From a virus, in IMG/VR virus record IMGVR_UViG_3300015263_000627: a stretch of 64,000 nucleotides of DNA; one strand, written 5' to 3'. The notes beneath the pieces are model-generated. The model ran no database searches. It saw nothing but the letters and a program-made list of their open reading frames with translations, and was not told where the DNA came from. Positions 12,266 through 64,000 of the stretch are shown one piece after another (position 1 is the stretch's first letter; each line of letters opens with the position of its first letter). A program made the translations under genes and the position numbers.

Positions 12266-12372
12266 TTCAACCCCTATACATATTGATTGCTGTTCCAATT
12301 AGAAAGCACAATGATCCAGCAATATAAAACCAATTTGCCATAATTCTTCCTGTGCCGAATCCAGTTTGTTAT

Positions 12373-12476
12373 ATCGGCTTTAGTGCACGGATTTACCCCA
12401 CACCGCTGGAAATAACGTCAGGTGTTTAGGAGGCGACCTGACGCGCCTATTTCGCGGACTGAGCTTAAGTGCCGAC
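12373..12476 (-). ncRNA. Candidate structured RNA / attenuator
   Basis: GC-rich intergenic stretch with nested stems GUCGGC/GCCGAU, CCGC/GCGG, GAAAUA/UAUUUC, CGUCAGG/CCUGACG. Confidence 0.4.
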
Positions 12477-12488
12477 CACGCCTAACTT

Positions 12489-13234: not shown

Positions 13235-13408
13235 ATGAAAATAATGTCCTTCAATGAACGATTCACCCGCGCCTTTCTTACGGCGATTTTATATATGTTA
13301 GCTATACATTATATAGCTCCAAATAATGGATCATTCAATGCTGTAGTGCTTTATATAACTTTTATGTTTTTGAGCGCAATGCAATATTTCGAAGGGAAAG
13401 TGTCTTGA
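13235..13408 (+). CDS. Small membrane protein
   Basis: Two hydrophobic helices; first gene after promoter. Confidence 0.5.
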   Translation: MKIMSFNERFTRAFLTAILYMLAIHYIAPNNGSFNAVVLYITFMFLSAMQYFEGKVS

Positions 13409-13611
13409 CTGAAACGCCAAAATTATGCACTACCTATGTCCGTCCCGCGCAAGCGAACAATTCATGGGAATATGGAATCGTCGCGCCGCTAGGTGATGGC
13501 AGGGAGCGATTTATTCCGCGCGGTTGGGCGAGCAAGGATATTGCTGATGCCCGCGCCGCCGATCTTGCGGCTACCGGCGATGAATATTTAGAAAGTCTAA
13601 AGAGGCTATAA
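13405..13611 (+). CDS. Hypothetical early protein
   Basis: TTG start with AGGGA RBS; coupled. Confidence 0.55.
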   Translation: MTETPKLCTTYVRPAQANNSWEYGIVAPLGDGRERFIPRGWASKDIADARAADLAATGDEYLESLKRL

Positions 13612-13865
13612 TGACTCAAAAACCTGAATTGTTAGGATACATTGTGTCCGATACCCCGTATAACCGGGAATTTTTTCCATATCTAATTGGGCGCGGCTTT
13701 GCGGCTCCCCCGGGATATGAACAAATTTTGCCCTATCGGTCCATCAAAACCGAAGGGTTTTATGCTATCCCCAAGGCGGTGGAACCGGAGAAATCCGATC
13801 CAATTTTAGAAACCATTGACCCATCTTGGGCTGACGATGGTTCCGATCCGGGAAAATCCGAATAA
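13611..13865 (+). CDS. Hypothetical early protein
   Basis: TAATG coupling. Confidence 0.55.
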   Translation: MTQKPELLGYIVSDTPYNREFFPYLIGRGFAAPPGYEQILPYRSIKTEGFYAIPKAVEPEKSDPILETIDPSWADDGSDPGKSE

Positions 13866-13922
13866 CCCCTTGATTTTCCATCGTTCTTAGTTCTTGACTC
13901 GAACCCGAATCTATGGTAAAAT
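13863..13922 (+). promoter_or_regulatory. Early promoter module with IHF-consensus site
   Basis: TAACCCCTTGATTTT...TTCTTAGTTCTTGACT-17-TAAAAT. Confidence 0.75.
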
Positions 13923-13930
13923 TATAAACA

Positions 13931-14134
13931 ATGTCGAGATATTCTGACCGCTTCGAAGAAATCTATATGCCGATCCCGGCAGGCACAAAAGTCCGGGACC
14001 ATCATGGCGACCTTGGCATTATTGTTCGCTGTCTTTCCCCTAAAAACACAAAATACACTGTTCGCTTCGAAGATGGCGATGCTATTCGATTTGTGGGCGA
14101 TCTAACCGTTATATATGATAACGACAAATACTGA
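13931..14134 (+). CDS. Hypothetical early protein (SH3-like beta barrel possible)
   Basis: GTKVRD...GII...YTVRFEDG. Confidence 0.55.
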   Translation: MSRYSDRFEEIYMPIPAGTKVRDHHGDLGIIVRCLSPKNTKYTVRFEDGDAIRFVGDLTVIYDNDKY

Positions 14135-20227: not shown

Positions 20228-22750
20228 ATGGCATTTTTCTATACAAACGTATATCAGCGATCCAATAAAATATACATTCGGGGTTATAATAACGACAAAC
20301 GTTTTCAAGACGTTGCCGATTATGAACCATATTTATTCATTCCAGACAAGGATGGCAAATCAGACTACCATACCTTACAAGGTGAACCGGTAAAAAGAAT
20401 ATCTTTCAATTCTATAAAAGAAGCCCGAGATTTCGTAAAGAAATACGAAGATGTTGAAAATGCCGCTTTTTATGGTATGACCAATTTCCAGTATGTAGCC
20501 TTGAACGACGAATTTCCGGGGATGATCGATTATAATCCCAAGGTTATTTCTGTTGCTTCACTCGATATCGAAGTTCATTCTCCCAACGGATTTCCAGACG
20601 TTGATAAAGCTGATCAAATGGTATCGGCTATTACACTAATCAAACGAGACAAGATCATCACATTTGGATTGAAAGCTTTTACACCATCTGATCCCAATGT
20701 TACCTATATTCTTTGTGATGATGAAAAGGATTTGTTGAAAAAATTTATTGCTATCTGGAGTGATGATCATCCGGATGTGGTTACCGGCTGGAATATTGAA
20801 ATGTTTGATATTCCCTACCTAGTCAACCGAATCCGCAAATTACTTGGTAACAAATGGGTCAATCTTCTTTCGCCATATGGATTCGTTTATCCACGCGAAA
20901 TAATTCGGGGAAAGTATGCCAGTTCCAATTTTGATGACCGAAAAGAAATCGTTTATGATATCACTGGTATTTCCCAATTAGACTATCAACAGCTTTATCG
21001 TAAATTCACTTTCACCAACCATGAAAGTTATGCTCTTGGGCATATTGCTTTTGTGGAATTGGGTGAGAAGAAAATCGACTATTCGGAAGTCCGATCCTTG
21101 GCTGAATTGTATGAGAAGGATCACGACAAATATATAAATTATAACGTCCGGGACGCCGTATTGGTGGACAAGCTAGAAAAGAAACTTGGTTTCATTCAAC
21201 TAGTGTTTGCTTTGGCATACAAAGCTAAAATCAATTACGTTGATGCTTTGACTACCCTTCGTCCATGGGACGTGATCATTCACAATCATTTGATGGAAAA
21301 AAAGATAGTTATTCCGCAAGCATTCAATCAGGATATGCGTCCGTTTGAGGGAGCCTATGTGAAAGACGTTCAAATCGGAATGCATCGATGGGTGGTATCC
21401 TTCGACTTGAACTCTCTATATCCGTCTATTATTTCGCAATGTAACATTTCACCTGAAACGATGGTAAAGAAAATTGAAATTCCATCCATTGATGAAATTC
21501 TCAAGACCAAATCAATCAATACTAAAGATTTTGATAACATCAATATGCTAAAGGATTGTGAACTATCATTGGTCGCCAACGGTTGGTGTTATATCCGAGA
21601 GAAAAAGGGTTTCCTTGGAGAACTGGTCGATATTTTTATTGCTGATCGTTCTTCCATCCGAAAAGAAATCAAGGTTTTACAAAAAGAAAACAATTCCAAG
21701 AACGAAAACAAAATCTCTCAATTACATAATTACCAGTGGGCGCTAAAGATTTTGACCAATGGTTTGTATGGAGCCTTGGGTAACCGTTATTTCCGTTGGT
21801 TCAATGTTGATCTTGCCGAATCAATTACCAAAACAGGACAATTAGCTGATCGATGGATTGCCGATGCACTCAATGATTATCTCAATAAAGAGCTATCTTC
21901 TCAAGATATGGATTACATTATCGCGGGAGATACTGATTCCGTCTATATCAATCTTGAACCGCTGGTCCAAAAGAACTTTGCATCACTCGATGATACAAAG
22001 CGGATCGTTGAATTTTTGGACAAGGTATGTAAGGAAAAACTGGAACCTTTTATTAAGCGACAGTATCTATCTCTTGGCGAGATGCTTAATTCTTATAACC
22101 AAAAACTGATAATGAACCGGGAAGCTATCTGCAATAAAGCAATCTTCCGGGGCAAAAAAATGTATATTCTCAATGTCTGGAATAGTGAAGGTATTGCCTA
22201 TGAAAAACCCAAGCTGAAAATCAAGGGTATTGAAGCTGTCCGTTCCAGCACCCCTATGGTTTGTCGTAATTCTATTCGGGAAGCTTTAAGTGTTATCATG
22301 AACAAGGAAGAAACTGATTTGCATCAGTTTGTTGCTGAGTTTGAAAAGAAATTCATGGAACTACCATTCGAAGATATTGCTTTTCCCCGAACCTTGAACA
22401 ATTTGGAAACCTATTATGATCCAAATACATTGTTCAAATTGCATTGTCCTATCCATGTGCGAGGATCGATCCTTTACAATAAATTGTTGCAGGATAAAAA
22501 GCTTACATCCAAATATCAAGTTATTCATAATAAGGATAAAATCAAATTTGCTTATTTGAAAAAACCCAATCCAATAAATGAACATGTTATAGCTGCCTAT
22601 AATGAACTACCCGAGGAATTAGGATTGACTAAATACATTGATCATGATATGCAGTTTGAAAAGGCATTTCTATCGCCAATTCGTTCCATTACTTCCATTA
22701 TCGGCTGGAACACCGAAAAACAAAACACATTACTAGGATTTTTTCAATAA
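20228..22750 (+). CDS. 43: Family B DNA polymerase gp43
   Basis: DIEV exonuclease, GWNIEMFD, SFDLNSLYPS, KILTNGLYG, AGDTDS; no intron or intein seen. Confidence 0.98.
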   Translation: MAFFYTNVYQRSNKIYIRGYNNDKRFQDVADYEPYLFIPDKDGKSDYHTLQGEPVKRISFNSIKEARDFVKKYEDVENAAFYGMTNFQYVALNDEFPGMIDYNPKVISVASLDIEVHSPNGFPDVDKADQMVSAITLIKRDKIITFGLKAFTPSDPNVTYILCDDEKDLLKKFIAIWSDDHPDVVTGWNIEMFDIPYLVNRIRKLLGNKWVNLLSPYGFVYPREIIRGKYASSNFDDRKEIVYDITGISQLDYQQLYRKFTFTNHESYALGHIAFVELGEKKIDYSEVRSLAELYEKDHDKYINYNVRDAVLVDKLEKKLGFIQLVFALAYKAKINYVDALTTLRPWDVIIHNHLMEKKIVIPQAFNQDMRPFEGAYVKDVQIGMHRWVVSFDLNSLYPSIISQCNISPETMVKKIEIPSIDEILKTKSINTKDFDNINMLKDCELSLVANGWCYIREKKGFLGELVDIFIADRSSIRKEIKVLQKENNSKNENKISQLHNYQWALKILTNGLYGALGNRYFRWFNVDLAESITKTGQLADRWIADALNDYLNKELSSQDMDYIIAGDTDSVYINLEPLVQKNFASLDDTKRIVEFLDKVCKEKLEPFIKRQYLSLGEMLNSYNQKLIMNREAICNKAIFRGKKMYILNVWNSEGIAYEKPKLKIKGIEAVRSSTPMVCRNSIREALSVIMNKEETDLHQFVAEFEKKFMELPFEDIAFPRTLNNLETYYDPNTLFKLHCPIHVRGSILYNKLLQDKKLTSKYQVIHNKDKIKFAYLKKPNPINEHVIAAYNELPEELGLTKYIDHDMQFEKAFLSPIRSITSIIGWNTEKQNTLLGFFQ

Positions 22751-28899: not shown

Positions 28900-30885
28900 A
28901 TGTTCAACCAACATGTAGGTTTTTTTATGCTCAAAGATGAATATTGTTATCCTGAATCGGTTATTTTGATCGATGAAGCCATAATTTATGAAAAGGCAAA
29001 TGAAGCCAAATCGGTAACCGAACCAGCAGTTCCCAAGCCTACCAAATCCCGTATGTCAAGCCAAAGTCATCTTGACCATGCCGAGGATTTGTTGATTCGT
29101 AAAGGTGAAAGAGGCTTTGATGATATTTTGTCGAGTCTTGGAAAGACCTATGACTATATTCGGGGGCGACACCGAAATGGTTACAGTATTTCCATGAAAT
29201 TTGATGGTAGTCCGGGTATTCTTTGGGGTTATATCAAAGGCAAATTCTTTGTCGCAACCAAATCCTTTTTCAATAAGACCCCCAAAATCAATTTCACCGA
29301 AAAGGATATTGCAACTAATCATGCAAGTTCTTCGAGTATTCAGAAAAAACTTAAATTGATGTTGAAATATCTCCCGGCAGTTACCCCCAAAACAGGTATA
29401 TTTCGGGGAGACTTGATGTTCACTCCCGGTGATGTTTCTCAAGATGGGGATGATATCAATTTTACTCCCAATACCCTGACCTATCATGTTCCTTCGACTA
29501 CCCCGGAAGGAAAAGAACTTCTAAAAGCCAAGATAGGCTTAGTTCCTCACATGATTTATCATGAACAAGAAAATGGCGATCTAAAGGCTACCTTTGATAG
29601 CAGTTTGGCTAAATTCCGTCGAAGTCCTGATGTTTACTTATTCGACCCAAAAATTACTGGACCTTTCGACTTTCCTCCGAATAAACAGCAACAATTTGCT
29701 TCAGAATTGATGAAGGCTCGAAATCTTCAAAAGACCTTGGCTGATCTACATGTATTTGATGCAATAAAGGATCATGAGCCTCTATTATTGAGCTACATCA
29801 ATTCATCAATCAAGGAAAAGAAAGAACGATCCGTTGCAGGTTACATATCTTTTGTTCAAAAATTGTTCAAAAAACATATCGAACATGTAAAATTGGATAA
29901 AACTAAGAACCGTATCCAAAAGGAAGTTGATGCCGAATTATTCCGGATCAATCAGAACAAGAAGGGTATTGAAACCCTATTCGATGCCCATAATCATATC
30001 CAAAACGCCAAGCAAGTTCTTGTTGATGTTCTATCTAAGACTTCTCCCTATAAAGAAACTATTCTAGGCAAACCCTCCAAACCGGAAGGTTTTGTCGTAT
30101 CTGTTCATGGTCAACCGGTCAAGCTTGTGGATCGAAAGGAATTTTCCGCTGCTAATTTTGATTGGAACACTAAGGTCGATCCCGAAGATAATCCAATGGT
30201 CATATCATGGGGACGTATGAATCCTATGACAGCAGGACACGAAAAGATGATGAATATTGGAAGTGATATTGCTCGCCGTATTGGAGCTAAACAAAAGGTC
30301 ATTATGTCCCGAAGTCAGGACCCGGAGAAAAATCCTCTAACTCCTCAAGAAAAATTGAAATGGGCAAAGACTCTATTCCCGGGCAAAGATATTGCTGTTG
30401 CGGGAGAAAATGAACCAACCCTTATTGCTCAATTACAACATATGTATAATAGTGGGGTCAAAGACCTTACTATGGTTGCAGGTAGTGATCGAACCAAAGA
30501 ATATACCAAAATCCTTGCTCGATATAACGGTCCCGGTGAAAACAAGCTATTTAATTTCAAGCGAGTTAGGGTTGTATCAGCAGGCGAGCGTGATCCAGAT
30601 AGTGAAGGTATTGCAGGTATCAGCGCAAGCAAGGTTAGAAGCGCCGCTGCCAAGAATGATTATAAAACCTTCTCGTCAATGATCCCTAAACACGTATCTT
30701 CTCTTGCCCGTCAAGACCTATTCCATACCCTTCGAGCTAATCAAGGATTGGTAAAAATAGGCTCAGATACTCCGGGGATAGCTCTTAGCATATATTCTAA
30801 ACGGAAACAGGGGGATAAGGTGGGTGATGATTCTAGGCGCGAGATTGAAAAACGCAAAAAACAAGGAAATTGGACCGGAAAATAA
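28900..30885 (+). CDS. Fusion of putative ligase-fold nucleotidyltransferase and HIGH-family (cytidyltransferase-like) domain
   Basis: N-terminal KFDG, GDLMF, EGFVV, VKLVDR; C-terminal WGRMNPMTAGHEK, KNPL, MVAGSDR, GERDPD, ISASKVR. Confidence 0.7.
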   Translation: MFNQHVGFFMLKDEYCYPESVILIDEAIIYEKANEAKSVTEPAVPKPTKSRMSSQSHLDHAEDLLIRKGERGFDDILSSLGKTYDYIRGRHRNGYSISMKFDGSPGILWGYIKGKFFVATKSFFNKTPKINFTEKDIATNHASSSSIQKKLKLMLKYLPAVTPKTGIFRGDLMFTPGDVSQDGDDINFTPNTLTYHVPSTTPEGKELLKAKIGLVPHMIYHEQENGDLKATFDSSLAKFRRSPDVYLFDPKITGPFDFPPNKQQQFASELMKARNLQKTLADLHVFDAIKDHEPLLLSYINSSIKEKKERSVAGYISFVQKLFKKHIEHVKLDKTKNRIQKEVDAELFRINQNKKGIETLFDAHNHIQNAKQVLVDVLSKTSPYKETILGKPSKPEGFVVSVHGQPVKLVDRKEFSAANFDWNTKVDPEDNPMVISWGRMNPMTAGHEKMMNIGSDIARRIGAKQKVIMSRSQDPEKNPLTPQEKLKWAKTLFPGKDIAVAGENEPTLIAQLQHMYNSGVKDLTMVAGSDRTKEYTKILARYNGPGENKLFNFKRVRVVSAGERDPDSEGIAGISASKVRSAAAKNDYKTFSSMIPKHVSSLARQDLFHTLRANQGLVKIGSDTPGIALSIYSKRKQGDKVGDDSRREIEKRKKQGNWTGK

Positions 30886-32035: not shown

Positions 32036-35000
32036 ATGGAGAAAATAATGATAAATGGACCATTCACTCAACCTTTGGACAATATTGCCAAGGCTTATCA
32101 AGAAATCCACAAAAAGACGATAGAAGATGCCGAAAAAGCGGAATCTGCCAAGGTTGAGGCTAATACTCAACCTTTGAAAGAAGGATTTGATGATTATAAC
32201 GAAATCGCCAAGGAACTAATCAAACGTTCCAAAGGTAAAGTCACCAAAGAACATATCCGAGATTTGGAAGATGAGCGTGATTCCCGAGGCTCTTTGGATT
32301 GGGATGAAGTTGCTCATCATATAAAAAAACATGGTGGAACTGTTGTTGAAGAAACCAAAAAGAAAGATAAAAAAAAGGTATGGAGTAAGGATGGCGACCC
32401 CAAGGAATATGGGGTAGATAAAGAACGTGAATTGGCAAAGGAAGAAAAGATTGACGAAATCAGTGTTGCCGCTGAAAAGAATTATTATAAGAAAAGCCAT
32501 GGTTGGATAAGCAAGAAAACCCGCGAATTGAATAAACGGGCTTATCATGCCATTTCGGCTGATGAAGTTCCTTCTAAAAAGGAACGGGATAAAGTCGAAC
32601 AGCGAAAGAAAATCAGCAACAAAGTATATCACAAGTTGATGGATGAAACTCAGCTTGATGAAATTTCCAAAAGAGCTTTAACAACCTACATTGACAAATC
32701 TGCTCAAGATTATAATTCTGCTAATAAAGAACGATATAATCAACTAACTTCATTCTATACAACGGCTGAAAAAAGACGCGATAAAAGATTGAAAGGAATT
32801 GGAACAGCATTCAAAAAATTACAGAATAAAATTTATCATGCTGATGAAGAAACTCAATTTGAGGAAGGATTTGCTCCGGTAACAAAAGACCGTCGAGGAA
32901 AATGGTGGGCTGTTGATGTTGAATCTGGTATGGAACATCATGGTCCTTTCGATACCGAAGATGAAGCTCATTCGGCTCATGAAAAATGGGAAGCTGGTAT
33001 TGCGCGTGAAGCTGAAAGAATGCGTAAAGCTTACATGTTGCAAAAATCCGGAAAAATGGATGAAGCAAAACGTCAATCAGTAATTGATGTATCCAGTGAA
33101 GATGCTGCTCGTTCTATTCGAGATGCAACCCGTAAGAATTACGAAACAGCATCTAAACAAAAATTCCGTACTGATGATGCATATGCCAATGCCTTCCTAT
33201 ATCCGAAAATCATTGGAAAATCAAAGGGATTGAAAATTCCGTTTATGTCCGAGGGTTTGAATGAAGCTCTTGATGTTCCGACTCCTTCCGCCGAAGAACT
33301 AGCCAAAAAATACAAACTATCTCTTGACCAAATCACCCAAATGATCAAGGTTGGAGCGGAAGTCGAGAAAGAACATACAACAACTGAAAAGAATGCCGAG
33401 GAAATTGCCCGTGACCATCTTGGCGAACGTCCTGATTATTATGACAAGTTGAAGAAAATGGAGGATTCTAAGGTTACTAAACCGGTCAAGGAAGAAACAC
33501 TTGATGAAATATCATTTGATAAACTGGATCGATATATGCCCAAAGCACAAAAAGAATTGCAAACATATGGAATGAATAAACCCGAAACCGATCTAAGCAT
33601 TTATGGTGACAGTAAAGCCGAGCAAGCAAGAGGGGCAGCTTATGAAAAGGATATTGATCGTCGCCGCCAAAATCGTAAATCAGGTCTAATGACAGCTTAT
33701 CTCAAGATGAAAGCCCGCGCCAAAATTCCAGCGACTTATAATGATGATGATTTGTATCAAAGGGAAGAAACCGAATTGAATGAACTAAATCGATCCACCC
33801 TTGCATCTTATATTCCTAAAGCATATGCTAGTGGTGTTGATTCAACAAGTGATGCCCAAGCTTATTATGTTGGATGGACTGATCCTGATAAACCAAGACA
33901 ACAACGTAATCTTTATCGAAAATCTATGGAAAAAAACTGGGACAAAGTTGGAAATCGAGCAAGGGGTGTTCGTCTTGCTACTAAAAAACTTCAAGACCCT
34001 AAGTATGGAAGATTTGCGACCACTATTGGATTTCAAGCACATCAAGCTGCTACAAAAGAAGAAACCGAATTGAATGAACTTCAATCCAAGGGTGAATTTC
34101 ATCAAAAATTTAAATATGGAGATTGGCCAAAACCCGAACCAGCACAACTTAGTCTTTTCAAAAAGAAAAGAAAGCCTTTGAATAAAAGACCGACTGAATA
34201 TAAGAAAAAAGAATACAAGAGTTTTCCAATTGAAGTTCAAAAGAAAGCAAAACTTGTTCACAAGATGATGGGACAACAAGCGGTTTCGAGATATGAACCT
34301 GCATATCGTGAAGGTTTGAAAGAAAAAATTGCAAAATCAAAACAACGCCAAACAAAATCAGCTAAAAATTTCAAACTATCCCAAACACAATGGATAAAAA
34401 TGAAGAATGAAGAAACTCAGCTTGATGAATTAAACCGCTCAACTCTTGCATCTTATATCAAGAAGGCTCATGTTAGTGGATTGAAAGCAGCAGCAGAAGG
34501 TGAAGAAGCATATCAAGATAATTATCATTATGGTCGTGGTTGGGATACATTTCTCAAAAAAATGTATAAAGCAAATGCCGTTGGGGAAAAGCGTGAACGT
34601 GGTATCAACCTTGCGGCTAAAAAACTTCAAGACCATAAGTATGGAAGATTTGCAACTACTATTGGATTTCAAGCACACCAAGCTGCTGCCCATCGAAACG
34701 AAGAAACCATAAATGAAGGAAAATTACGTCCGCGTAAGATTTCCAGCATTATGAATGACAAACGTGATTGGCAAGGTAATTCCGAAAGAGCAAGGGGAAA
34801 TCCTGAATATCCAGCGGTTTGGCCAAAATATGATGAAAAGAATATTGGGGGCGGGGTCCTTCGCACAACTCATATTCCCAAGGAAAAAGTTGCGGAATAT
34901 GAAAAGGATGTTGTCAAAAAAGGTGTAGCGGCTGGCAAATTCCTGAAACAACAACGCAAGGATTGGCTTGCTAAGAAAAAAGGTGAACGTGAAAAGGTTA

Positions 35001-61112: not shown

Positions 61113-61388
61113 ATGCAAAAGATAGTTTTTTATTGTGATCGATGTGGCACTGATATAATGCATAATGGTGTCTATGATCTTCAGCTAAATTTACATTATA
61201 GTGGTTTGGCTAACGATATAATTTACTTATCCGGAGATTTTTGTGCAGAATGTTATAATATTATCAAACAAAAAATCGGTAAGGAATTAGAATTTAACCG
61301 TTTTCAAACTTATGAGAATATAAGAAAAATTATGGAATGGGATGTTACACCCAAGCCGCCCGAAGATCATCATCCGACAGATTCGTAA
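61113..61388 (+). CDS. Hypothetical zinc-binding protein
   Basis: CDRCG...DFCAEC. Confidence 0.55.
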   Translation: MQKIVFYCDRCGTDIMHNGVYDLQLNLHYSGLANDIIYLSGDFCAECYNIIKQKIGKELEFNRFQTYENIRKIMEWDVTPKPPEDHHPTDS

Positions 61389-61992
61389 CATTTAGATCAA
61401 GACCTTTGTTACCCGGACAACGAATACCGGGAACCCAATGAGGTTCAGGACCTACCCCATCACCAGTATATTGCCATAAGAAGAAATCATCAAACCCATT
61501 CGGGAAACGATAACGCGATCCATATTGGGCAAGCCAAAGCTTATGGGATGTGATGTAATCCCGATCCACTCGATTTAGATCATCAATTGTTTCTTTCAGC
61601 TTATTACCCGAATAGATAATAGCCTTGCGACCCATCTTTTCTTCGATAAGATGCAAGAAATCGACGGCTTGATGAATGGTCATATCAGACCTGCGATTTT
61701 CTTCATAGTCTAAGGCTAAAAGGGTTCGAGGATCAGGTTGAGATGCATCAAGGAATTTATTGACTTGAGCAACGACATTTTCGGCGGAATTGAAATGATA
61801 GGCTCCCCATTCTAATCCAACCGACAAGGCTCCCTCTCTAAATTCATCATACATGGGGTCTTTATAATTGGTGCCTTGGCTGGCTTTGCAAATTATTCCG
61901 ACAATGCCATAATCCTTGACTTTTTGCCAATCTTGACGGTCAATTTCTTCATAATGTGAAATATCGACCACTTTGGGAATGAAATCGGTCAT
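61345..61992 (-). CDS. GH25 muramidase endolysin
   Basis: VDISHY, KASQG, GAYHF, LDYE, IYS, LWLAQY, WQYT, DLN; late ATAAATA upstream. Confidence 0.93.
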   Translation of the reverse strand: MTDFIPKVVDISHYEEIDRQDWQKVKDYGIVGIICKASQGTNYKDPMYDEFREGALSVGLEWGAYHFNSAENVVAQVNKFLDASQPDPRTLLALDYEENRRSDMTIHQAVDFLHLIEEKMGRKAIIYSGNKLKETIDDLNRVDRDYITSHKLWLAQYGSRYRFPNGFDDFFLWQYTGDGVGPEPHWVPGIRCPGNKGLDLNVTNLSDDDLRAAWV

Positions 61993-62041
61993 TTTGTTGT
62001 TCTCCATTTTCCTAAATACTATTTATTAGGGGAGGGCTTCT

Positions 62042-62254
62042 ATGGCATCTACAACCGAGGAACGGAAAGCGAAACGTTTGAAACAATTACAAGAAAATGT
62101 CGAAGCCCAAATTCTTATGACGGACGGTCCCGAAGATTTGCTGTTATTAGCCACTATATTCCTAGCTACTGCCAAAAACATCTTTTTATCGAATTTTCCC
62201 AAAGAACATACCCGCGACGTTTTGCATAAGTATGTGGACGATGTTACAAAATGA
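62042..62254 (+). CDS. Hypothetical protein
   Basis: GGGAGG RBS; late-type CTAAATA upstream. Confidence 0.6.
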   Translation: MASTTEERKAKRLKQLQENVEAQILMTDGPEDLLLLATIFLATAKNIFLSNFPKEHTRDVLHKYVDDVTK

Positions 62255-62314
62255 TAACCCATTGATTTTCCACGTTTCTTAGTTCTTGACTCTACCCCTT
62301 TTATGTGATAAATT
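62255..62314 (+). promoter_or_regulatory. Repeated early promoter module (IHF site + -35/-10)
   Basis: TAACCCATTGATTTTCCACGTTTCTTAGTTCTTGACT-17-TAAATT. Confidence 0.8.
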
Positions 62315-62320
62315 CTTATC

Positions 62321-62590
62321 ATGACTGAAAAATGCAAATACATAGTATTCGAAGATGATCTTGGTTTAGAGGTCATTATAGTCTTTCCAAATGTAGTAAA
62401 ACATTCGGATATCAAAGTAAATGGCAACATAGTGAGTGCTGGTTTTATTACTAGATGGGAAAATGGACTTAATTATGACTGTGGCTATACTTGCTATGGT
62501 AAGTCGATTAGTTTAGGCGTCGAAAGTCGCCCTGAAAAAGATGCAAAAATAGCTAAAAGACAGCTTGCCACTATGTTGATTAGTGATTGA
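62321..62590 (+). CDS. Hypothetical early protein
   Basis: KYIVF...VSAGF...CYGKSISLGVESR. Confidence 0.65.
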   Translation: MTEKCKYIVFEDDLGLEVIIVFPNVVKHSDIKVNGNIVSAGFITRWENGLNYDCGYTCYGKSISLGVESRPEKDAKIAKRQLATMLISD

Positions 62591-62593
62591 ATT

Positions 62594-62872
62594 ATGAAGA
62601 AAACTCTCAAATTTGGCAAATACCCCGCCGATGGTTTTGTTGCCACCCTTGAAGAATATTACAAGGATGGTTTTGAAACTGGTGCCTCTTGGAAAGAGGA
62701 TTATATTCCGGGGGGTCCGTGGGTTTGCTCCTATGGTTTCATTTTGACGCATGATGCCGATTGGCAGGCTTATTGCCAGCATACCAAGGATGGCAACGCC
62801 GAATGGCTCCGGGGGTTCAAGGCAGGATTAGATTCTCAATCCTCTAACCCATTGAAATCTCACGTTTCTTAG
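62594..62872 (+). CDS. Hypothetical early protein
   Basis: YIPGGPW...WLRGF..G. Confidence 0.6.
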   Translation: MKKTLKFGKYPADGFVATLEEYYKDGFETGASWKEDYIPGGPWVCSYGFILTHDADWQAYCQHTKDGNAEWLRGFKAGLDSQSSNPLKSHVS

Positions 62873-62904
62873 TTCTTGACATCATAAGAACATTCTGCTA
62901 TGAT
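62845..62904 (+). promoter_or_regulatory. Repeated early promoter module
   Basis: TAACCCATTGAAATCTCACGTTTCTTAGTTCTTGACA-17-TATGAT. Confidence 0.8.
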
Positions 62905-62910
62905 TAGCTT

Positions 62911-63050
62911 ATATGTGACGGTGTTACTCCACCTCCCTTGCCCCGGGGGTCGAAGCGTGGTAGCCGAGAGGGAAAAGAGGGCTAACCGGAAAAAAGTCCT
63001 ATTTCCGGGGATGGCAGGGGGGACGCAGCCCATTCAAAAGGCTAGGCAAA
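62911..63050 (+). ncRNA. Candidate ~140-nt structured small RNA with its own promoter
   Basis: GC-rich; closing stem 62933-62942/63013-63022 with internal hairpins TAGCC/GGCTA and CCGGAAA/TTTCCGG; no RBS-led ORF. Confidence 0.55.
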
Positions 63051-63054
63051 CTTC

Positions 63055-63114
63055 TAACCCATTGATTTTCCACGTTTCTTAGTTCTTGACATAGACAAAA
63101 TCTTGTGCTAGGAT
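63055..63114 (+). promoter_or_regulatory. Repeated early promoter module
   Basis: TAACCCATTGATTTTCCACGTTTCTTAGTTCTTGACA-17-TAGGAT. Confidence 0.8.
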
Positions 63115-63119
63115 TAGTT

Positions 63120-63338
63120 ATGATGACAAAAAGCAAGATCAATACCGCAAGGCTCCGGAACAAGGAACCTTCGACGTATCAGAAAATGCGAGCTATTGTC
63201 CGTAAATGGGATGATTTAATACATTTTATGCATTATGATTATCGCCAAGTTGATACAATTGACCTAAACAGTCACGCTCGTATTCGTATGTCCAAAACAG
63301 CCGAAGGTCACACACTCTTAGAGATTTTGGAAAGCTAA
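63120..63338 (+). CDS. Hypothetical early protein (near-leaderless)
   Basis: ATG just after promoter -10. Confidence 0.5.
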   Translation: MMTKSKINTARLRNKEPSTYQKMRAIVRKWDDLIHFMHYDYRQVDTIDLNSHARIRMSKTAEGHTLLEILES

Positions 63339-63339
63339 C

Positions 63340-63534
63340 ATGACAAAACGTCAAGGATATTACCGCTTTTATAATGCAGGTAAATTCAATGGTCGCGGTG
63401 AGGATCATATTATGTTTTGTTTTTATGGTCCTGATAAAACTCCCGGGCAATGTCAACTTGTTCCGGCTTCACATGCTGCCGCAGAACTTGCAGCAATAAA
63501 GGCAAACCGAGATTATTTACCATTAACGGAATAA
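63340..63534 (+). CDS. Hypothetical early protein
   Basis: Operon packing. Confidence 0.55.
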   Translation: MTKRQGYYRFYNAGKFNGRGEDHIMFCFYGPDKTPGQCQLVPASHAAAELAAIKANRDYLPLTE

Positions 63535-63541
63535 TTCACAT

Positions 63542-63853
63542 ATGACAAAAACAGACCTAATTCGACAAGATGCGCTTGATCACGCCCGTAATGGCGAGTC
63601 GATGCGAAATTATGCTCTCATTATTGAGGGCTTCATGGACAAGGGAATCGCGGAAGATGACATTCTTCCGCGTGAGAATGTGTTCACCTATAATGCATGG
63701 ATGGCACAAGGTCGCCGCGTCAAGCGGGGCGAGCATGGTGTGAAGATCACCACGTTTATCCCGAAAAAGGATAAAAAGACCGGCGAGAAAAAGGGTGTCC
63801 GTCCGTGGATTTCGACAGTGTTCCATGTGACGCAAACGGAGAAGGTAGCGTGA
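63542..63853 (+). CDS. ArdC-like N-terminal ssDNA-binding domain protein (stand-alone)
   Basis: FTYNAWMAQGRRVKRGEHG...TVFHVTQTE. Confidence 0.8.
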   Translation: MTKTDLIRQDALDHARNGESMRNYALIIEGFMDKGIAEDDILPRENVFTYNAWMAQGRRVKRGEHGVKITTFIPKKDKKTGEKKGVRPWISTVFHVTQTEKVA

Positions 63854-64000
63854 CAAATTTACCGGAACTGTGTTATACGCGCATTCTTGGCGCTGCCCCG
63901 GGTCACCGCATGGGCGTGATCAAATGTGATGTATCGGGATATTATCCTTGTGATTATGATCAAGCGAAATATTCCGATGAACAAATTGAGGATTGGGTTC

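Follow-up and report, generated by a model that had tools for sequence, protein, structure and literature searches.

Phage T4 makes two small stable non-coding RNAs, rnaC and rnaD, which are encoded beside its tRNA genes and transcribed early or at middle times, and whose function is unknown. Both RNAs are processed out of a tRNA precursor and are stable and folded. The put RNAs of phage HK022 are another case of non-coding early transcription, as they are cis-acting antitermination RNAs located just downstream of early promoters, and the cI mRNA that phage lambda makes from PRM is leaderless. Leaderless genes have also been described in mycobacteria (Shell et al. 2015, as cited in PMC8244752). 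In T4-type phages, PeSL (promoter-early stem-loop) cassettes are shuffled between genomes, and the motif that accompanies them combines a stable stem-loop (a terminator or attenuator) with a Shine-Dalgarno sequence and the start codon of the next gene, which close the motif (Arbiol et al. 2010, PMC2839356; Comeau et al. 2014, PMC4122927).

We analyzed a stretch of 64,000 nucleotides (the window), which corresponds to bases 111557 to 175556 of a virus record that is 181,157 bp long and has a terminal repeat of 144 bp. The source is an uncultured T4-like phage, which encodes the core proteins gp43 polymerase, UvsX, gp41 helicase, and a gp46-like nuclease, and the relatives of its gp43 do not exceed 50% identity. 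The genome has a G+C content of ∼38%.

The locus that we describe shares with PeSL cassettes a repeated sigma-70-type early-promoter motif placed between small ORFan genes of a T4-like phage. As in PeSLs, the stop codon of the upstream gene lies inside the motif, and insertions, deletions, and replacements among related phages are jointed in it (62254/63055, 62320/62594, and a new upstream context for the copy termed P2). The modules differ from PeSLs in lacking a conserved stem-loop or terminator and in having a start codon but no Shine-Dalgarno sequence, the ATG following the -10 element by 5 to 8 nt, which implies leaderless mRNAs. Their sequence is also unrelated, and one of the cassettes, that of P2, has no ORF. 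We found no report in the PeSL papers (PMC2839356, PMC4122927) of a module form devoid of both stem-loop and Shine-Dalgarno sequence. Compared with the described leaderless mRNAs, what differs here is that the predicted leaderless start comes with the mobile promoter modules of an entire family and that, in the P2 cassette, a stop codon follows it directly.

The P2 cassette also invites comparison with known phage RNAs. Unlike rnaC and rnaD, its GC-rich stretch lies outside the tRNA array and shows no fold signal and no evident processing signal. It resembles the put RNAs in being probably non-coding and promoter proximal and in having adjacent stem-loops (62961 to 62984, then an A, then 62986 to 63008). 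However, these hairpins have short stems of 5 and 7 bp that enclose large loops, and we identified no terminator downstream.

A family of early-promoter modules

We found that a 20-mer, CACGTTTCTTAGTTCTTGAC, is present in exact form at positions 62271, 62861, and 63071 of the window, together with one copy carrying 3 mismatches, where 0 copies are expected by chance. It belongs to a module of 36 to 60 nt, whose aligned extent runs from TAACCCATTGA to the -10 element and which has six copies genome-wide, every one on the + strand. The modules and the features of the P2 cassette are as follows.

13849-13933, 62255-62323, 62845-62915, and 63055-63125, + strand: module copies in the window
Genome positions 20540-20622 and 30303-30385, + strand: module copies outside the window
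62255-62314, + strand: module P1; drives a predicted leaderless 89-aa ORF at 62321; left partner of the 62254/63055 deletion in a soil contig
62845-62904, + strand: module P2; TAA at 62845-62847, TGA at 62853-62855, TAG at 62870-62872; -35 element TTGACA at 62876-62881; extended -10 element TGcTATGAT ending at 62904
63055-63114, + strand: module P3; TAA at 63055-63057, TGA at 63063-63065, TAG at 63080-63082; -35 element at 63086-63091; -10 element TAGGAT at 63109-63114; drives a predicted leaderless 72-aa ORF at 63120
62911-63054, + strand: GC-rich cargo of P2, 57% G+C, with no canonical-ATG ORF; holds the hairpins of the preliminary description
62915-63082, + strand: the only frame that stays open, with 55 codons from its GTG start to the TAG of P3; atypical codon usage and no homologue

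The TAA, TGA, and TAG of the module fall in three different frames, so that any ORF entering a module terminates there. Two upstream ORFs illustrate this, one of 84 aa (13611) that stops at the TAA and one of 92 aa (62594) that stops at the TAG. At the other end, five of the six modules have an ATG 5 to 8 nt past the -10 element that opens an ORF (67, 72, 89, 292, and 304 aa), a spacing that leaves no room for a Shine-Dalgarno sequence. If transcription starts ∼7 nt past the -10 element, the mRNAs made from the modules would be leaderless or nearly so, and the start codon of all six copies would lie at, or no more than ∼2 nt from, the predicted transcription start. Neither a terminator-like site nor a conserved stem-loop was found in or beside the modules, and a 6-bp AU-rich inverted repeat (62872 to 62877/62886 to 62891) is present in P2 only.

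The ORFs flanking the cassette region belong to no Pfam or PHROG family, and the proteins of neighboring genes begin with MTE, MTK, MMTK, MTKR, or MTKT. Directly upstream of this early region, on the opposite strand, lies a gene for a GH25-family endolysin (61345 to 62007, - strand). Further downstream, an early ORF of 103 aa (63542 to 63853, + strand) weakly matches the N-terminal domain of the antirestriction factor ArdC (Pfam E value of 1e-4, just over the cut-off). This ORF has at least 80 relatives in IMG/VR contigs, with 46 to 58% identity, and it therefore belongs to a widespread family of small phage proteins.

We then looked into the P2 copy. The full promoter claimed by the preliminary description at 62876 to 62904 is indeed there: its sequence is TTGACA-17-TATGAT, a TG precedes the -10 element, and the agreement with the consensus, at 11 of 12 positions, is the best in the region. 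P2 is predicted to be a strong, near-consensus sigma-70-type early promoter. The GC-rich sequence of ∼140 nt reported to follow it was likewise recovered (57% G+C versus ∼38% in the genome), and the next promoter module, reported at 63055, is the start of P3. The same description held that no ORF led by a ribosome-binding site (RBS) is present. It is true that no ORF starts at a canonical ATG, but the observation is not diagnostic, since the sister modules drive genes without an RBS, and the absence of an RBS at P2 thus carries no weight.

Two features had been left out, the frame that remains open up to 63082 and an ATG at 62913, 8 nt past the -10 element, whose next codon is TGA (62913 to 62918, + strand). 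At this very place, the sister modules begin their predicted leaderless ORFs. A duplication of TG within ATGACG would give the local sequence, ATGTGACG. Reading the TGA as tryptophan, as in an alternative code, gives a frame of just 16 aa.

The promoter geometry would place the transcription start of P2 near 62911 to 62913. No terminator-like site was detected between 62911 and 63120, and the P2 transcript should therefore run on past the ATG at 63120 into the downstream genes. Such a read-through transcript would hold the AGGA of the P3 -10 element, 6 nt before that ATG. A self-BLAST over the whole phage revealed neither a paralogue nor a significant antisense target of the cargo.

Rearrangement of the cassettes in other metagenomes

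We compared positions 62000 to 63600 with Logan contigs of four other sequencing runs. In a contig from soil, 62254 is joined to 63055, with both of the cassettes between P1 and P3 gone and a shared run of 36 letters that could belong to the left or the right of the joint. In another study, a sediment contig contains P2 and its cargo (62839 to 63025) with at most 1 difference and behind 49 unrelated letters, and a contig of a third run contains 62990 to 63083. In a marine-sediment contig, 62320 is joined to 62594, which removes the 89-aa ORF and brings P1 immediately in front of the 92-aa ORF; this run also has a loose end similar to what precedes the module at 13884. In one run, contigs cover the 92-aa ORF (62594 to 62872) and none spans the P2 cargo, which is a coverage hole and not evidence of absence. 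Among the twelve public runs identified as containing parts of the stretch, none is listed as an RNA run.

Each joint thus coincides exactly with a module or with the ATG(A) of a predicted leaderless start, and the cargo is near-identical in at least two other metagenomes, once with a different upstream context. As these contigs show, the element is no assembly chimera but real DNA, travels with its promoter, and is dispensable. The presence of joints at modules in both soil and sediment contigs also indicates that relatives of this phage occur in runs labeled soil.

Outside these near-identical copies, we found no diverged copy of the element or of the module in IMG/VR, JGI metagenome contigs, GTDB genomes, GenBank phages, or PLSDB plasmids. 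IMG/VR gave 0 matches to the module pattern and 0 to an exact 30-mer from the element, JGI metagenome contigs gave 0 to the module pattern, and blastn of 62000 to 64000 and of 62905 to 63060 against phages and plasmids gave no match. The flanking 92-aa and 72-aa ORFs had no match in IMG/VR, and the 92-aa ORF retrieved only itself from a set of 5.8 billion proteins. Module and element were both absent from the 80 loci around homologues of the 103-aa ArdC-N-like ORF.

A proposed gene-less cassette

Our preferred reading, which we hold tentatively, is that the cargo is a transcribed but functionless relic, or an untranslated leader, and that its cassette, part of a PeSL-like shuffling system, is empty or decayed. 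We propose that the 140 nt would form the cargo carried by one of the copies of a mobile early-promoter module. Each copy would end any entering ORF, supply a strong sigma-70-type promoter, and set a leaderless ATG 5 to 8 nt past the -10 element. At P2, the ATG-TGA would leave the cassette without a translatable gene, and the GC-rich cargo would most likely be a decayed or foreign fragment gained by recombination at the modules. It may be transcribed only as the untranslated 5' part of an early transcript that reads from P2 through P3 into the genes for the 72-aa ORF (63120), the 64-aa ORF (63340), and the 103-aa ArdC-N-like ORF (63542). In that case, P2 would serve as a second promoter in tandem, and the cargo RNA would need no function of its own. 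In this scheme, we infer where transcription starts, that it reads through, and that the cargo lacks a function.

Several observations support the scheme: the five sister modules open ORFs where P2 has ATG-TGA, the modules carry three-frame stops, and the rearrangements run from module to module. The cargo has no terminator, no fold signal, and no Rfam family, and its codon usage is not that of the phage (see below). PeSL cassettes of T4-type phages behave alike (PMC2839356, PMC4122927), which makes such an origin plausible by analogy. Against it, a G+C content of 57% in a 38% genome is unexpected for old junk and is similar to the mean of the phage tRNAs (0.52), and the cargo persists and moves, as shown by the near-identical copies. 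A missing fold signal is, in addition, compatible with a trans-acting small RNA (sRNA).

The setting is in our view worth more than the small-RNA candidate that drew attention to it. The mobile modules unite a strong early promoter with a translational stop in all three frames and a start codon predicted to be leaderless, and they extend the idea of PeSL cassette shuffling to a form without stem-loop or Shine-Dalgarno sequence. Such shuffling can leave, or carry, gene-less cassettes. Should the cargo prove to function as RNA, the mechanism that moves ORFans would also have moved an RNA gene.

Fold and family tests of the cargo RNA

The preliminary description saw in the cargo a multibranch fold with the following helices.

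62933-62942/63013-63022, + strand: 10-bp closing stem, including two G-U pairs
62961-62965/62980-62984, + strand: TAGCC/GGCTA hairpin
62986-62992/63002-63008, + strand: CCGGAAA/TTTCCGG hairpin
63027-63030/63040-63043, + strand: AGCC/GGCT hairpin

All of these helices exist and are part of the minimum-free-energy fold, but its stability is not beyond chance. The folding energy is -44.6 kcal/mol versus a mean of -47.9 (SD, 3.8) for dinucleotide shuffles (z = +0.88), and 164 of 200 shuffles fold at least as well as the cargo. The opposite strand gave a z score of +0.23, and sub-windows of the cargo ranged from +0.9 to -1.4, with the best parts between -0.7 and -1.4. As a calibration, the 25 tRNAs that ARAGORN predicts in this phage have a mean z score of -1.67 (SD, 0.85), none of them exceeds +0.5, and the cargo is 3 SD away.

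An Rfam cmscan, one of the checks proposed for the candidate, returned 0 matches at the gathering score in the window (Rfam 15, including 6S, CsrB/RsmZ, tRNA, tmRNA, and riboswitches). When 62700 to 63250 was searched at E values up to 10, two chance-level matches appeared, neither of them to the + strand of the element, and ARAGORN detected no tRNA or tmRNA in the window. We also considered a tRNA-like element, as a GGTCGAAGC stretch resembles a T-loop, and rejected it because the stretch has no stem and found no support from ARAGORN or Rfam. With no fold signal, no Rfam family, and no terminator or 3' end before the next promoter, the claim of a discrete structured small RNA was not borne out. 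The roles proposed for it, namely, a sponge for Hfq, CsrA, or Cas proteins, a 6S-like decoy, or an antidefense RNA, fared no better, as none of their defining features was found. An intrinsic terminator hairpin with a U-tail, the 3' end of an Hfq-type sRNA, is not present between 62911 and 63120. The idea of a CsrA sponge was dropped upon reading the sequence, which has ∼4 GGA motifs in 140 nt, about as composition predicts. We therefore regard the stretch as a weak small-RNA candidate, which on present evidence should not be counted as a new phage RNA.

Many trans-acting sRNAs give no fold z-score signal, and its absence does not exclude them. A functional non-coding RNA made early from P2, either a processed trans-acting sRNA or a cis-acting leader of the downstream genes, is a serious alternative, although we deem it rather unlikely. 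A trans-acting form could work, for example, via the CACCUCC stretch at 62930 to 62936, which we take to match the anti-Shine-Dalgarno core of 16S rRNA, and a cis-acting form could control translation or, like put, modify RNA polymerase. Such a role is consistent with the strong promoter, with the ATG-TGA, which looks deliberate and blocks translation of the stretch, and with a codon usage of non-coding character. The cargo also has a G+C content that is alien to the genome and like that of the structured RNAs of the phage, it is near-identical in other samples and moves with its promoter, and a single base separates its two central hairpins. These points are countered by the fold z score of +0.88, at 3 SD from the phage tRNAs, by the lack of any Rfam match at E values up to 10, and by the missing terminator or U-tail. 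In addition, the CACCUCC match and the likeness to put RNAs were picked post hoc, and the other five modules serve protein genes, with 0 of 5 serving an RNA gene.

A more specific form of this explanation strikes us as unlikely. It supposes that the early non-coding RNA of a mobile cassette has its translation purposely blocked by the 5' AUG-UGA and acts in cis or in trans. In cis, it would act on the polymerase or the ribosome entering the downstream antirestriction-like genes; in trans, its anti-Shine-Dalgarno-like CACCUCC would favor the leaderless early mRNAs of the phage over host mRNAs.

As for the composition of the cargo, the genome contains 21 G+C peaks. Some coincide with the tRNA island, and 14 of the 21 lie outside it; those that we checked fall within ORFs, and G+C peaks are thus not specific to RNA genes in this phage.

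The open frame from GTG 62915

We then analyzed the coding potential of the cargo. The only open frame starts at the GTG at 62915, and its open stretch reaches back to 62900 (60 aa up to 63082). A frame this long is open by chance in 19% of dinucleotide shuffles for a given frame and in 51% for any frame. Codon preferences tabulated over 131 long phage ORFs, with a composition-matched null, gave log-odds per codon of -0.53 for the GTG frame versus +0.09 (SD, 0.11; 1st percentile, -0.27) for in-frame windows of real genes. GC-rich in-frame windows scored -0.03 (SD, 0.21), with 4.8% of them as low as the element, and chance-open windows in the RNA island scored -0.13. A CAI-like index gave the same picture, with 0.44 for the GTG frame versus 0.74 (SD, 0.08; 1st percentile, 0.51) for real genes and 0.55 to 0.78 for the six neighboring small ORFs and a GC-rich 68-aa ORF. 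Given the ATG-TGA and a sole open frame whose codon usage lies outside the phage range, we agree with the earlier view that the stretch under the strong promoter is likely not translated as a normal phage protein.

Searches with the frame were in line with this. phmmer against 1.84 billion representatives retrieved only the protein itself and repetitive low-complexity noise, and the 60-aa frame forms a one-member protein cluster from the same record. When back-translated and searched against metagenome and genome contigs, the 60-aa frame gave one match in each, off-frame in high-GC bacterial DNA, which we discarded as spurious. An AlphaFold2 model of the 55-aa frame, made without an alignment, has a pLDDT of 61, a pTM of 0.18, and one helix, and is uninformative.

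We doubt that the cassette encodes a small, basic, foreign ORFan protein of 55 aa (starting with MTVLLHLPCPGG) translated from GTG 62915 of a near-leaderless mRNA, or that it is a very recent pseudogene produced by a TG duplication (ATGACG to ATGTGACG). In favor of such a protein, no stop interrupts the frame between 62915 and the TAG of P3, the GTG (or the ATG before the duplication) gives an M-T start like those of the neighboring genes, and the ATG sits at the canonical leaderless position. The G+C content by codon position (0.63/0.50/0.63) is lowest at position 2, and the phage has another small GC-rich ORF with a non-ATG start (13405 to 13611). What speaks against it, besides the frequency of open frames by chance, is a codon usage below the 1st percentile of phage genes and the absence of a homologue in the phmmer search. 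Moreover, the overlapping AUG-UGA should capture initiation at the 5' end, and the GUG sits within a small hairpin.

An element acting at the DNA level or during transcription, such as non-template G-runs that favor an R-loop as at promoter-dependent replication origins, or a protein-binding or recombination site, is very unlikely: the cargo has 58% purines, a GC skew of +0.15, and several G-runs directly past a strong promoter (GGGGG, GGG, GGG, GGGG, and GGGGGG), but the skew is modest, C-runs occur too, a canonical four-run G-quadruplex would require a 25-nt loop, there is no AT-rich unwinding element, and the stretch is wholly absent from one relative.

Other GC-rich and ORF-free segments of the phage

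The 68-aa ORF at 13405 to 13611 (+ strand) has a G+C content of 53%, with a peak of 62%, starts with TTG, and is coupled to its neighbors by overlapping stop and start codons; this phage does have GC-rich small genes with non-ATG starts. A crude scan of coding coverage also pointed to a 361-nt ORF-free gap with 45% G+C at genome positions 34627 to 34987, outside the window and outside the tRNA island. A second GC-rich ORF-free gap of the window lies between convergent genes at 12299 to 12488 and contains a long hairpin (the GTCAGGTG...CACCTGAC region), with fold z scores of -0.7 and -0.15 on the two strands. This gap is probably a bidirectional terminator region of the two convergent genes.
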